Positions 5,689 to 10,860 of a stretch of 62,719 nt of DNA are shown here, one piece after another (the first letter of the stretch is position 1; each line of letters opens with the position of its first letter). The notes beneath the pieces were generated by a model. That model was not told the origin of the DNA and did no database searches. It worked only from the letters and a program-made list of their open reading frames with translations. Position numbers and translations under genes: made by a program. The DNA comes from Acidobacteriota bacterium (GTDB lineage Bacteria; Acidobacteriota; Blastocatellia; Pyrinomonadales; Pyrinomonadaceae). The DNA lies in the NCBI GenBank assembly GCA_031398645.1, contig JANNNS010000338.1, forward strand, positions 1 to 62,719, written 5' to 3'.

Positions 5689-5718
5689 AGAAGAAAAGCG
5701 TCCGAATAACTCGGACGC
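5689..5718 (-). terminator. Rho-independent terminator ending the sigma/anti-sigma/CHAT operon
   Basis: On the minus strand: GCGTCCGA-gttat-TCGGACGC (8-bp perfect stem) followed by TTTTCTTCT. It lies about 35 nt after the CHAT stop codon. Confidence 0.6.
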
Positions 5719-5751
5719 CCGGAGGTCACAATTTGAAACAGTATTTTGAGA

Positions 5752-8700
5752 CTAGCGCTGGCCGTCCAGGTTCGCCCACTCGCCGGCTTGTATAAAGCTT
5801 GCCCAGTAAAAAGGATGGCGCCGATCCGGTCGTCTGAGCATTTCGAGCTGGATCTTCCGCAAAGATTCGCCGCGGCCAAGGCCGTGTTTTAGATTCTTGT
5901 AGTAGCCGGTCATCAACTCCCGAGTGAAACTGTCGCTGACCGGCCACATACTCATTACGAGCGATTCTGTTCCCGCTAGCACGAACGAGCGACGCAGGCC
6001 GTAGACTCCTTCGCCGGTCCGCACTTCACCCACTCCGGTATCGCACGCAGATAGAACGACCAGCTTCGTGCCCCAAAGATCGAGGCCTGATGCCTCGAGC
6101 GCGGTCAATACGCCGTCGTCAGGGCCGCTGCCGTGTCGGTTTGCTCCGGCCAGAGCGAGGCCCGAACGAAGAAGGGGATTTCCACGACTCTCGCTGAAGG
6201 GACCCGATCGCATTCGGCTCTTCGGCTGGTCCCCTTTCAGAAAGAACCCGTGCGTCGCGATATGAAGGAGCTTGGGCCCTGCTACGGCCTTTAGGGACGA
6301 CTCCGTCGCATCGGAGCCGGTCACCGACCTCGCCTCCGGAAAGATACCCTTAATTGACCGCGCCTCGATGGCTGTACCAGCCAATGGTGCAAAGTAGGTA
6401 TCTGAAAGGTTGCGGGTCGAGGTGACACTCTGACGCCGTTTTGATGCCGACCGCGCCTTCCTTTGTTCTGGGGCCTGATCGGTCGTGTCTATTTCCGGTT
6501 GGCCAAACACCGGATCGGCAACAAGGAGCGGCGGGCTTTTGCTCTCTCTCCCAACGCCCATGCGCAAAAGGTCCCTTCCACTGGTCAGGTAGGTGATCGA
6601 AAACCGCTCGATCAAGTATTCGTTTTGCTCATCGACGAATGCCTCGAAGGGAATCAGGTTCAGTGCTCCGTCTGGCGAGATAAGGAGATGTTTTGCATCT
6701 CCAATATAGGATCGCAAAGGCTTCATGACTCTCTCGTCCAGTATCCGAGCGAGTTTATCTACGTCCTTATTCTTGGGATCGCGTAGAGCGAGACGCAAGG
6801 CGGATATTGAAGCATCGATCGTTCTCGAATCACCGAGGTCCGCCCATTCGGTGCGTCCATCACGTCGCATCACATACGCGGCGTAGCGCGCTTGATCTAA
6901 TGAAGGATCGCTCGCCGATGAGCCTGGCTTGACCGGCCTATAAACCGTAAACTCGATAAGAGCGCCGTGTTCGGGGAGGCCCATTCGGACTGATTCAAGC
7001 CTCAATGGTTGAGCCTGTACGCGAAACTCAGCGCTTCGCCGGCTCAGATCATCTTCAAGCTTTTCACGCTGCTCCTCAAGCTCTTTTAGTTTCTGCCGGT
7101 AAAGTTCCGGCTTATCGTTTCCTACCCCTCTCAGCGTTAGGGTCGCGAACCGAGTACGGGCATCTGCGAGCCGGTCCATCAGGTCCTTATCCTCGGGGTG
7201 GGAGCGTGCCCGAAGCGCGGAGATGCTCGCCGCCATCGCATCCAGAGTTCGTCCCTTTCGGCTTAGGATCAGTGCGAGAGCCATCTTCTTCAATTGATCC
7301 GACGACTGGCCAAGTTGTGTCTGTAGTGAAACCGCAGAATCCAGATCGCGCGAAAGGGTCTCCATGTAGGCAAGTTTTTGGCGCTCCGAACCGATGAAAA
7401 GATTCAGGTCCAAGTTTCGTTCTCTCACTGCCAGATATCTTTCCTGCAGGTCTAGTGCGTTCTTCCAATCGCCTTTCGCAGCGTACAGGTCTGCGAGATT
7501 CCCTAGAACTCGTGCGCAGAACGGATGCTCAGGACCGTTCGCCTTTTGAAATATTGCCAGCGAGCGAAGCAATAATGGTTCTGCGTCAGCGTACTCGCCC
7601 TTTCGAAGGTGAAGCAGCCCCAAATTGTTCAACATGTGGGCGAATGTGGGATGTTCATTGCCGAGCTTTGCCTCAGAGATCTCCAAAGCTCTTACGAATA
7701 GCGGTTCCGCCTTTTCGTAATCATTTTTGTTGAGGTAATGGAGGCCGAGATTTCCGAGCGTTGCTCCGACTATCGCGTGACCCGATTCGAAGGACTTTTC
7801 GCGAATTTGAAGTGCTCTCAGGAAAAGTGGTTCGGCCTTCTCGGATTCTCCGGACTCGTCATAGAGAAGTGCTAGGTTATTAAGATTGATCGCAACGTTT
7901 GGATGGTCTGGGCCGAGTCTCTTCTCGTTGATGCCGATCGCCCGCTTAAAAAGCTCCTGGCCCTTTGCAAAATCCCCGACCTCACCGCTTACCGACGCGA
8001 TGTTTGAGAGCATTATCGCGATCGACGGATGGTCAGGCCCGAGCTTCTTCTCGGCAATGGCAAGCGCCTGATCGAAATAGGCGATGGAGTTGGCGTAGTC
8101 ACCCCTGACCCGGAAGAGCAGGGCGAGATTATTGAGCAGTGTAGCGACGTCCATATTGTCGCTTCCTTGCCATTTTCGCCTGATCGCGAGAGCCCGAAGA
8201 TACGGCTGCTCTGCGCGAACATACTCGCCTTTAGCGTAAAAAAGGAACGCAAGATTGTTAAGAACTGCAGCCACCGATAGATCTTCCGGCCCGAATACTT
8301 TCTCGTCGATCGCCAGTGCCCGGGTATAGCTTTCAGCCGCCTTGTCGAAGTCACCCGCCGCACGATAAGCCGGTCCAAGGTTATTAAGAACGGCGGCGAC
8401 ATAGTAGTTATCAGGCCCTAGCGTCCGCTCGTATAGTGCTAATGCCTTGAGGTAATGCTCCCGTGCGTTCTTCAGATCGCTTTTGCCGTCGTAAATAAGT
8501 CCGATCTCATTAAGAATATCGGCCACCCTAACGTCATTCTCGCCGGCTGCTTTGACAAGAAGCCCGAGGGCGAGCTGCTGCTTTGCCAAAGCCTCGTCAT
8601 ATTTTGCTCCCTCGGTAAGTTTTCGCCCATCCGAACTCAAGTGAAACGCTTGCGCCAGATCTTGTTCTTTCTCCGTCGGTGCCTTAAAACTACCAACCTT

Positions 8701-9169: not shown

Positions 9170-10195
9170 TTATCGCACAACACGGAAGGTATAGTCACCA
9201 ACTATCTCCCGCTCTCCGGCCGAAGATGACCGCGTGACCGACAATGTATAGATCTGTCTTCTCAACAATCGAGCAGGTATATTCGCGGTGATAGAGCTCT
9301 GGTCGCCGGAACGCACCGCTGTCACCTTTCGGGTGTTCCAAATAACGCGATCTGTCGCGGGCTCCCTTAGCTCGACGGCGTAGGAATGCAGCTCGTTGGA
9401 CTCCAACTCAAGTCGGATGACCGCTCGGTCTGTATCTTCAGGCAGCGATATTTGTGGCAGTTGGCCGCTCGACCTCAGAGGTGGCGTCAAAACAAATGAA
9501 AGGATTCGAGGTATCGACGACTGGGCCTGCCTCCGAGGGATATCTGCCGGCCTTGCAGGTGGTCGTATACCAGGACGAGCTTGGGCTCGGGCAAGCTTTC
9601 GCTCTAGTTCCTCGCGTTCAGCGCGAAGCCGGGCAAGTTCGACCGATTCATCAGATAACTTAACCGTCCCGGGCGGATCTTGCGCCCTTCGTACCTCCGC
9701 TTGACGTTCCATGTCTTCCGCACGAGCCGACGCGGTATCGAGCTCACCCCGTAGCCGGGCGTTCTCGATAAAGAGCCAGCCGCCTAAAGCTGTCATGAGG
9801 ACTAGGCCCGCGGCGAACGCCAGCCGCAAGGTGGGCCACTCAAAAATGCGGCTTAAAAGCCCTTTCTCACTAACCAGTGCGGACGTCGATTCCGTCGCGG
9901 CATCAGCATTTACCGAAGCAAAAGTGTGAAATGCCGCGGCAAAATTTGCACGGTTTCGGCGGATCGGTGAGTTCAAGTAATAGCCCTCGAAATTTTTCAG
10001 ATCTGCACCGAGCAATTCGCCCTGATCGTAAGCATCGACCAGATCATACTCGACCGCTCGCAATCTCTCTGCGAACGCTTCATCCGTGACCGACAACTCA
10101 TCGATACGTTCGGCATCCGCCGCCGGCAGCGATCCGAGAAGGTAAGCGGAGAGTTGTCGATCGGTCAGTTCGCTCATAAGTTCGGTCGAACACAT
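9170..10195 (-). CDS. Single-pass membrane protein, anti-sigma-factor-like
   Basis: Sits between the ECF sigma gene and the CHAT gene with 38- and 46-nt gaps. The N-terminal ~120 aa are helical (LTDRQLSAYLLGSLPAADAERIDELSVTDEAFAERLRAVEYDLVDAY). One TM segment (LRLAFAAGLVLMTALGGWLFI) is followed by a coiled-coil and a beta-rich C-terminal domain. There is no HxxxCxxC zinc motif, so the anti-sigma assignment rests on position and topology. Confidence 0.6.
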   Translation of the reverse strand: MCSTELMSELTDRQLSAYLLGSLPAADAERIDELSVTDEAFAERLRAVEYDLVDAYDQGELLGADLKNFEGYYLNSPIRRNRANFAAAFHTFASVNADAATESTSALVSEKGLLSRIFEWPTLRLAFAAGLVLMTALGGWLFIENARLRGELDTASARAEDMERQAEVRRAQDPPGTVKLSDESVELARLRAEREELERKLARAQARPGIRPPARPADIPRRQAQSSIPRILSFVLTPPLRSSGQLPQISLPEDTDRAVIRLELESNELHSYAVELREPATDRVIWNTRKVTAVRSGDQSSITANIPARLLRRQIYTLSVTRSSSAGEREIVGDYTFRVVR

Positions 10196-10233
10196 CGGTG
10201 TTCAACTTTATAAGACAGACGGCAAAAAACATT

Positions 10234-10860
10234 TCATTTTCCGTCAACGCATTTTGTCACACATACCTCGAGCTTCTCACGGATGCGGCACGCCCTAATG
10301 CTAAGCGCGTTTGCCGTAATGCCCAGTTCACCAGCCATTTGCCTTCTATTTTCTATCTTTGTCCGCTCGACGCCGAAGTAATATCTGAGAATCAACGAGC
10401 GATTCGCTGGAACGAGGTTCTCCGAGCAACTCTCCAAACACTTAAATGTCCGCTCCTTTAGTTCCTGCTCCTCGTCGGAGTTGCTGACACCTGTTCGATC
10501 ACTGATCCGTCGCTCAAGAACATCATCCAGCGGAACTTCGCCCCGCCGTGCGTTATCACGAATGTACTCAAGGAAAACGAATCGAGCGACCGTGTAGCAG
10601 TACTTCGCGGGAGCTTCCGTAATGATCTCGCCTTCTTCTTCGAGTCGCCGGCCCACGCGGTTCAAAGTTTCGTCCGCAAGATTCACAGGCGTTTGACAGC
10701 CCTTCCTGTCAAAGTACGCAGTAAGTCGTTGCTGAATCGCGAGATACGACCGCCCGTCGGACTCGGTCCCATCGTCGAGCCAGGTCAGGAACGCTTTGAA
10801 TGCCCCCTCACTGAACTCCCACGACGACTTTTTGACCCGAGTTGTAGGCCGATCGTTCAT
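10234..10860 (-). CDS. ECF-type RNA polymerase sigma-70 family factor
   Basis: 208 aa. Region-2-like segment (YCYTVARFVFLEYIRDNARR). Region-4 HTH (RSLILRYYFGVERTKIENRRQMAGELGITANALSIRACRIREKL). No regions 1 or 3. Confidence 0.8.
   Translation of the reverse strand: MNDRPTTRVKKSSWEFSEGAFKAFLTWLDDGTESDGRSYLAIQQRLTAYFDRKGCQTPVNLADETLNRVGRRLEEEGEIITEAPAKYCYTVARFVFLEYIRDNARRGEVPLDDVLERRISDRTGVSNSDEEQELKERTFKCLESCSENLVPANRSLILRYYFGVERTKIENRRQMAGELGITANALSIRACRIREKLEVCVTKCVDGK

Follow-up and report, generated by a model that had tools for sequence, protein, structure and literature searches.

The locus described here raises the question of whether a sigma factor can be controlled across the cell membrane by an exported CHAT-domain protease that is encoded beside it. 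The locus was found in an Acidobacteriota bacterium of the family Pyrinomonadaceae (GenBank assembly GCA_031398645.1, contig JANNNS010000338.1), of which positions 1 to 62,719 were analyzed. This whole stretch of 62,719 nucleotides is called the window, and all coordinates refer to its forward strand. The element in question consists of three co-directional genes:

10234..10860, minus strand: sigma open reading frame (ORF), 208 residues
9170..10195, minus strand: middle-protein ORF, 341 residues, putative anti-sigma factor
5752..9123, minus strand: TPR-CHAT ORF, 1123 residues

The sigma and middle-protein genes are separated by 38 nt and the middle-protein and TPR-CHAT genes by 46 nt; the arrangement and coordinates were exactly those given by the first-pass annotation. 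The three genes are a conserved signaling cassette of soil Acidobacteria. By analogy with characterized systems, the products may form an envelope-signaling device in which the CHAT protein acts in trans as the site-1 protease, i.e., a two-polypeptide counterpart of Myxococcus xanthus DdvA, and we give this reading a probability of roughly 45%.

Conservation of the three-gene cassette

The major data collected for the cassette as a unit were its gene neighborhoods. GTDB species representatives (one genome per species) were searched with the sigma alignment, which yielded 194 relatives; the best 80 loci were fetched, and 66 of these extend far enough downstream for the triad to be assessed. Of the 66 sigma-seeded loci, 64 have the order sigma, middle protein, and TPR-CHAT on one strand and with short gaps, and all loci found by way of the middle protein or the CHAT protein share this order. 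The first-pass annotation had named beforehand the loss of this neighborhood in related genomes as an outcome that would speak against its proposal, and the neighborhood was found to be kept. The hosts were mostly Pyrinomonadaceae or other Blastocatellia, with a few labeled Bryobacteraceae, Chthoniobacterales, or Verrucomicrobiae.

The family is large. Homologs of the sigma factor amounted to 2,245 matches at about 55 to 60% identity. With the middle-protein profile, 3,356 clusters built at 50% identity were matched at E ≤ 1e-30, and a threshold of E ≤ 1e-3 raised this number to 13,241; the top 150 were 274 to 395 residues long, and almost all were matched over their full length. In the ORF and BLAST analysis, a middle-protein homolog followed the sigma gene in all sufficiently long loci except L066 (7950-8576), where the sigma gene is an orphan. 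In L071 (8656-11227), the sigma and middle-protein genes are followed by a di-heme peroxidase-like gene in place of CHAT; since this third gene encodes no alternative protease, L071 is uninformative on the logic of the module. Two tandem TPR-CHAT paralogs each were found in L020 (2179-8551) and L026 (9810-16095).

The triad is not a general property of TPR-CHAT proteins, as sigma and anti-sigma neighbors were absent beside the TPR-CHAT homologs of Polyangiaceae, Nostoc, and Sorangium. Since homologs elsewhere occur without these neighbors, the cassette was deduced to be a clade-specific invention.

Predicted properties of the three products

The product of gene 1 is accepted as an ECF (extracytoplasmic function)-type sigma factor of a divergent family, chiefly on the strength of its predicted fold. 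The helices concerned are the following:

10546..10809, minus strand: sigma2-like helices, residues 18 to 105
10243..10476, minus strand: sigma4-like helices, residues 129 to 206

The AlphaFold2 (AF2) model, with a mean predicted local distance difference test score (pLDDT) of 70.7, contains two sets of four helices joined by a disordered linker, which corresponds to the sigma2-linker-sigma4 arrangement of a two-domain factor that lacks regions 1.1 and 3. When this model was compared to the PDB with Foldseek, the top 13 matches were all sigma factors, comprising 12 ECF sigma factors and Escherichia coli sigma32. The ECF matches included Mycobacterium tuberculosis SigL and SigH, AlgU with MucA, and E. 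coli sigmaE with RseA, with 169 to 197 columns aligned, and the sigma4 domain alone matched 3hug_A with a TM-score of 0.70 and a root mean square deviation of 2.8 Å. The two-domain ECF assignment made in the first-pass annotation is supported by this fold and by the identity of its matches, but the protein proved far more divergent than had been described, as no Pfam model matched even at E ≤ 10, the Sigma70_r2 and Sigma70_r4_2 models included. Sequence models did not place it within the ECF (group 4) sigma-70 family either: the NCBIfam matches were significant yet below their curated cut-offs (TIGR02989, 4.1e-11 and 43.1 bits against 124.55; TIGR02937, 2.7e-7 and 30.3 bits against 42.9). A profile of the sigma family gave no meaningful match to PDB sequences. 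The hhalign comparison of the family with a manually entered E. coli RpoE sequence gave no match and is counted as evidence neither way.

Seven cysteines of the sigma factor (C55, C88, C141, C145, C191, C200, and C204) were invariant among 39 family members of about 55% identity. They include two CxxxC pairs, located in the first and last sigma4 helices, and had not been mentioned in the first-pass annotation. The pattern suggests that the sigma factor itself contains a site for zinc binding or redox chemistry.

The middle protein is anti-sigma-like and is taken, from its predicted architecture, to be the single-pass membrane partner of the sigma factor. Its predicted parts are as follows:

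9896..10174, minus strand: cytoplasmic N-terminal helical domain, anti-sigma-domain-like, without zinc ligands (residues ~8 to 100; pLDDT ~96)
9767..9832, minus strand: single transmembrane helix (residues ~122 to 143), the hydrophobic stretch LRLAFAAGLVLMTALGGWLFI within the long helix 121-172
9506..9766, minus strand: periplasmic coiled coil (residues 144 to 206; helices 121-172 and 181-206) and Pro/Arg-rich disordered linker (residues 207 to 230)
9173..9505, minus strand: C-terminal immunoglobulin (Ig)-like beta-sandwich (residues 231 to 341; pLDDT > 90)

The AF2 model (mean pLDDT, 83.7) resolved a helical head at residues 3 to 107, a long helix at 121 to 172, a coiled coil extending to 206, a disordered stretch at 210 to 226, and a beta-sandwich at 231 to 340. 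The model and the family alignment both agree with the earlier description of a zinc-less head, one transmembrane helix, a coiled coil, and a beta-rich tail. The transmembrane segment was hydrophobic in all family members aligned, the head and the Ig-like domain were both present in all 74 complete middle proteins from the loci, and the head motif YLLGxLP..DELSxTDDEFA..DLVDAY was conserved across the family. The HxxxCxxC motif of the zinc-binding anti-sigma (ZAS) subclass was not found, since the head contains no His or Cys and none is conserved in the family; the sole Cys of the protein is residue 2. Pfam zf-HC2, the family of anti-sigma N-terminal domains, was detected at the level of the family, with the window protein scoring E = 0.21 and 33 of 38 members matching at E ≤ 1 (best, 2.2e-7). 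As in class I membrane anti-sigma factors, a single transmembrane helix lies behind the head and the gene adjoins that of the sigma factor. The anti-sigma identity is thus proposed because of three features taken together, i.e., the zf-HC2 matches across the family, the single membrane pass, and the constant location of the gene beside that of the sigma factor.

The remaining parts of the middle protein gave less specific signals. Its profile produced no meaningful match to PDB sequences, and Foldseek returned merely generic Ig-like or cupredoxin-like matches for the beta-sandwich. Residues 210 to 226 of the linker have a pLDDT below 50, and the coiled-coil and linker region varies in length and sequence within the family; this region is a candidate for protease access. 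At the end of the first Ig-like strand and in the following loop lies an invariant L-x-P-x-x-R motif (L236, P238, and R241; 9473..9490). Several clan CD proteases, e.g., separase, cleave after Arg, and it is speculated that these residues might be a site of cleavage or docking.

The third product is a large protein with four predicted modules:

9016..9123, minus strand: putative Sec-type signal peptide (residues 1 to ~36; cleavage site guessed)
8659..9006, minus strand: PPC-like beta-sandwich (residues ~40 to 155)
7408..8655, minus strand: TPR array of kinesin-light-chain type, 9 to 10 units of 42 residues (residues ~157 to 572)
5782..6756, minus strand: CHAT caspase-fold protease domain (residues 790 to 1114)

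The first-pass annotation had named an N-terminal signal or anchor, about ten TPRs, and a CHAT domain, and these were recovered here. A basic n-region, a hydrophobic core of 12 to 15 residues, and a c-region of small residues and Gln were present in 61 of 62 CHAT orthologs, with c-regions such as ...SAVA/QTAPE and ...ETALA/QSSPP; in the remaining one, L054, the start of the ORF is misplaced. From this conserved Sec-type signal peptide we infer that the TPR-CHAT protein is exported, which places it outside the cytoplasm. The TPR array was matched by Pfam TPR_12 at 2.8e-91 and TPR_10 at 2.5e-66, and a phmmer search of PDB sequences with the whole protein recovered TPR proteins only, the best match being kinesin light chain. 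For the PPC-like domain, also named earlier, Pfam PPC gave a match (3.9e-4, 21.7 bits over residues 62 to 129) that is below the 25.9-bit cut-off; ortholog P0232 carries PF04151 in its precomputed Pfam domain list.

The CHAT domain itself was matched by Pfam PF12770 at 1.7e-78 with 264.5 bits, well above the cut-off of 24, and together with the His-Cys dyad this match assigns it to the CHAT family and predicts a caspase-like protease. The codons previously proposed for the dyad (6250..6252 and 6043..6045) correspond exactly to His958 and Cys1027, which are at least 95% conserved in the 62 orthologs. Within the triad, the CHAT domain evolves most slowly (mean p-distance, 0.34) and the PPC-like and TPR parts most rapidly (about 0.63 to 0.64).

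A proposed proteolytic switch, its precedents, and its competitors

DdvA of M. xanthus is a single-pass transmembrane anti-sigma factor with a periplasmic TPR-CHAT region that carries a His-Cys dyad; its bulky periplasmic domain blocks RseP, and removal of this domain leads to RseP-dependent degradation (Sci Adv 2024, PMC11506125; PMC6061681). A signal-induced self-cleavage of the linker by CHAT (site-1), followed by RseP, was proposed by the authors, who stated that the self-cleavage is verifiable only after the signal is found; the three-helix motif is missing in the DdvA CHAT, and DdvA-like proteins were reported only in Myxococcota and one Comamonas (PMC11506125). Like DdvA, the present cassette combines TPRs with a CHAT domain that carries the His-Cys dyad, both on the predicted periplasmic side, and has a flexible periplasmic linker behind the transmembrane helix, and the proposed logic of CHAT as site-1 protease followed by RseP would be the same. 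Unlike DdvA, the TPR-CHAT part is a separate signal-peptide-bearing protein encoded after a 46-nt gap, and this split was seen in all loci examined. The anti-sigma head is without the CHCC zinc site of the three-helix anti-sigma domain, the anti-sigma has a coiled coil and an Ig-like domain of its own, and the CHAT protein has an additional PPC-like domain. The host phylum is Acidobacteriota, and no CBASS or type III-B CRISPR island adjoins the genes in the window (ORFs of ≥200 residues). The present CHAT protein showed no detectable sequence similarity to the solved structure.

By its predicted features, then, the cassette is outside the DdvA type, having separate genes, no zinc site, and no defense island, and it looks like a split version of DdvS/DdvA. 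Since anti-sigma and TPR-CHAT are fused in DdvA, a functional coupling of the two proteins is suggested here by the gene-fusion argument. The first-pass annotation had placed this logic across the membrane and knew of no such module with a demonstrated mechanism; this needs the correction that a transmembrane version, DdvA, had already been published (PMC11506125). With DdvA on record as the fused version, it is the split, trans-acting form of the Acidobacteria that is new rather than the concept. No paper combining the CHAT domain, Acidobacteria, and sigma was found in the searchable literature, from which the cassette appears to be undescribed, and the main text of the ECF classification makes no mention of CHAT (PMC7826278).

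The second precedent is the type III-E (craspase) module, in which the TPR-CHAT protein Csx29 cleaves Csx30, a protein that binds and inhibits the ECF-like CASP-sigma; recognition of Csx30 runs through its C-terminal domain, the cut falls within a flexible loop, and proteolysis was demonstrated to relieve the inhibition (PMC10028731). The first-pass annotation had reported this background correctly and had drawn from it a three-part logic for the present locus. All three parts, a TPR-CHAT protease, an anti-sigma-like protein that would bind the sigma factor and be cleaved, and an ECF-like sigma, are present. The link is one of analogy and not of family membership, because the CAS_III-E sigma model matched gene 1 with only 18.3 bits (E = 0.0017) against a cut-off of 100. 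Whereas the type III-E system operates in the cytoplasm, bound to Cas7-11 and activated by RNA, the present locus has no cas gene, a protease that bears a signal peptide, and an inhibitor that is predicted to be a membrane protein. No cas, CBASS, or other known defense gene was found in the 62.7-kb window (Pfam on all ORFs of ≥200 residues; PADLOC), which bears out the earlier statement on cas genes. With no cas gene, a signal peptide, and a sub-threshold sigma model, the cassette is, as judged from its sequence, outside the type III-E module.

The cassette also invites comparison with the regulated intramembrane proteolysis of anti-sigma factors, as in RseA/DegS/RseP with sigmaE and related systems (summarized in PMC10028731 and PMC11506125), with which it shares a single-pass anti-sigma with a cytoplasmic head and, as proposed, a periplasmic site-1 cut. 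The classical site-1 enzyme of the RseA pathway is a PDZ serine protease encoded elsewhere, and here the presumed enzyme would be a caspase-fold cysteine protease of the same operon. No RseP gene was found within the window. In ECF54, genes for CHAT, subtilase, or carboxypeptidase proteins occur nearby and proteolytic control was proposed (PMC8999054 section 3.3), so that a CHAT-domain gene conserved beside an ECF sigma is common to both; ECF54 was described as actinobacterial and without an anti-sigma (PMC8999054), unlike the present cassette, where the membrane anti-sigma-like protein is always present.

The following sequence of events is proposed. The sigma factor would be held at the inner membrane by the zinc-less cytoplasmic head of the middle protein, which would expose its coiled coil, linker, and Ig-like domain on the periplasmic side, where the Sec-exported TPR-CHAT protein could meet them. 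The variable PPC-like/TPR surface would read a signal and thereby activate or position the CHAT domain, which would then cut the exposed linker, or possibly the L236-P238-R241 loop, as the site-1 cleavage. RseP-type intramembrane and cytoplasmic proteases would complete the degradation and free the sigma factor. The support for cleavage by CHAT is circumstantial and consists of the near-obligate synteny, the compartment that both partners are predicted to share, the strongest selection being on the catalytic domain, and the DdvA fusion. In a more specific form, which we advance with greater reserve, the trans-acting site-1 CHAT protease would be gated by a ligand through a PPC-like/TPR sensor, and the cassette would constitute a periplasmic, CRISPR-independent counterpart of the craspase/Csx30/sigma system in at least ~190 soil Acidobacteriota species. 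The Cys-rich sigma factor could add a second input, metal or redox. The cassette might report attack from outside the cell, a reading prompted by the genes for secreted proteins, VgrG/DUF4123, and Tae4 that lie downstream in some loci.

Several observations weigh against this proposal. CHAT site-1 cleavage remains a proposal even for DdvA (PMC11506125). The CHAT-domain profile matched no solved CHAT structure among PDB sequences, and neither a profile search nor the leading Foldseek hits connected the N-terminal head of the middle protein with a solved anti-sigma domain. Cleavage within the linker (residues ~207 to 230) would leave ~65 to 85 periplasmic residues, which is beyond the usual RseP stubs, so that further trimming would be needed. 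A protease encoded in a sigma operon need not be the site-1 enzyme, as exemplified by MucD in algU-mucABCD. Mirror-tree and partial correlations among the sigma factor, three regions of the middle protein, and four regions of the CHAT protein (59 triads) gave r = 0.41 to 0.75 for all pairs, a pattern that tracks evolutionary rate and not topology, and they were rejected as uninformative. Finally, a promoter search by dyad and k-mer counts and a position weight matrix over 84 upstream regions found no family-wide sigma-specific promoter.

Four other explanations were considered. In the first, the TPR-CHAT protein binds the Ig-like domain or the coiled coil and sterically guards the anti-sigma from periplasmic proteases and RseP, as a co-sensor like RseB/MucB or in the manner of the bulky DdvA domain, until a ligand or CHAT self-cleavage releases it and another protease cuts the anti-sigma. 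Protein binding is a typical function of TPR arrays and Ig-like domains, and the strict synteny would be explained equally well. This is nevertheless considered unlikely, as no part of the triad is more conserved than the catalytic domain with its dyad, which argues that selection acts on catalysis and not on binding alone.

In the second explanation, the sigma and anti-sigma are an ordinary envelope-stress pair, and TPR-CHAT is a co-transcribed response protease that acts on other periplasmic or surface proteins or, in a homeostatic role like that of MucD, eliminates the inducing signal, with no part in anti-sigma cleavage. ECF operons often include their own effector genes, and context alone cannot separate regulators from targets (PMC7826278). 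The genes behind the CHAT gene are, moreover, co-directional in 145 of 160 cases, and many encode variable secreted or surface proteins that are possible substrates. The near-obligate association and fixed order of the triad over ~60% protein divergence are unlike the behavior of those variable genes further downstream, and the fused DdvA architecture indicates a role on the input side; a pure output function is likewise regarded as improbable.

A third explanation, in which the seven sigma cysteines act as the zinc or redox sensor and the periplasmic components are accessory, is given little probability. It would account for the invariance of the cysteines in 39 sequences, for the two CxxxC pairs on sigma4, and for the loss of the usual zinc motif from the anti-sigma, and Cys-rich metal-dependent ECF sigma factors such as CorE are known (PMC8999054). 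The cysteines may, on the other hand, merely build a structural metal site, and the constant presence of a signal-peptide-bearing protease would be left unexplained; sensing by the sigma factor is also compatible with proteolytic control, so that both modes may coexist. The last explanation, chance adjacency of unrelated ORFs with gene 1 misannotated as a sigma factor, could draw on the empty Pfam and PDB profile searches for gene 1 and is effectively refuted by the order kept in 64 of 66 loci, the ECF-like predicted fold, and the NCBIfam match at 4e-11.

Unit boundary, genomic surroundings, and implications

Features beyond the 3' end of the cassette are as follows:

5686..5720, minus strand: terminator-like hairpin (10 to 11 stem pairs) and U-rich tail 3' of the CHAT gene
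4304..5572, 3054..4259, and 2487..3038, minus strand: three proteins of unknown function with signal peptide-like N termini, one of them lipoprotein-like
3..449, 672..1676, and 1911..2375, minus strand, left end of the window: VgrG N terminus, a 334-residue metzincin-motif protein, and a further ORF

The first-pass annotation had closed the transcription unit with a hairpin behind the CHAT gene. Such a hairpin is indeed present (5696..5720; stem of 10 to 11 bp), followed by the U-rich tail UUUUCUUCUG, and its 76-nt context folds at -19.9 kcal/mol (z = -1.9). By itself it is weak evidence, since 8 such patterns were counted in this region against 6.6 ± 2.8 in shuffled sequences and they are thus no rarity here. 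The boundary is supported by the next gene (4304..5572, 422 residues), which has a ribosome-binding site and a sigma70-like promoter block of its own, conserved in related loci.

The promoter search described above did yield one motif, TTGATGTCG-N-GAAG-cTTATGCTTTG, at a fixed position ~75 nt upstream of the sigma start in a 22-locus subclade that includes L003, L013, L014, L016, and L017. Neither the window nor any of the remaining loci has this motif. It was rejected as a sigma-specific promoter, being sigma70-like, limited to this subclade, and present once per locus. The search gave nothing else, and no regulon could be inferred. When the closest loci were aligned, nothing was common to the sigma-upstream region and the sigma70-like block of the next gene.

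Downstream and co-directional with the triad are the three signal-peptide-like proteins, then two more proteins, and then the start of VgrG. Pfam gave no match for the products of 4304..5572, 3054..4259, and 2487..3038. Behind the CHAT gene, homologs of the 401-residue protein occur in 17 of 55 loci and homologs of the 422-residue protein in 10, and L092 carries homologs of both. These secreted-type proteins may be targets, substrates, or unrelated cargo. The VgrG start in the window is 98.7% identical to the VgrG of L089 (17631-21372), which is followed by DUF4123 and one further gene; just upstream of VgrG in the window, the 334-residue protein carries the metzincin motif HEVGHMLGLPH without a signal peptide. 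In L092, a gene for a Tae4 amidase effector (16872-17375) lies 2.8 kb behind the CHAT gene. There may thus be a recurrent link of triad loci to type VI secretion islands. PADLOC returned one generic TPR hit alone, and membership of a defense system was rejected.

Upstream of the triad and divergent from it is a starch-utilization block. This ~16-kb starch/maltodextrin block (11388..27045) contains genes for a ROK regulator, a CarboxypepD_reg protein with an outer-membrane barrel, three alpha-amylases, GH77, a major facilitator superfamily transporter, and GH15. It is present in the window and absent from the corresponding place in L089 (5290-7263), a 95 to 98% identical relative in which the sigma gene adjoins FlgT_C, Lon, SLT-LysM, and GntR genes; in the window the block separates the sigma gene from these. 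The two close relatives thus differ here by an insertion or a deletion. Elsewhere in the window, a 1,766-residue ORF (52361..57661, minus strand) has FG-GAP repeat proteins on both sides, and Pfam gave no match to it at E ≤ 1e-5.

The separation of protease and presumed substrate, which in DdvA are one chain, makes the proposed cleavage directly testable. If the proposal is true, the pairing of TPR-CHAT with an anti-sigma would extend from Myxococcota to an abundant and poorly understood soil phylum, and an exported member of the large, mostly uncharacterized bacterial CHAT family would have a signaling role. The middle-protein family spans thousands of sequence clusters, and the cassette is very common in soil Acidobacteria.

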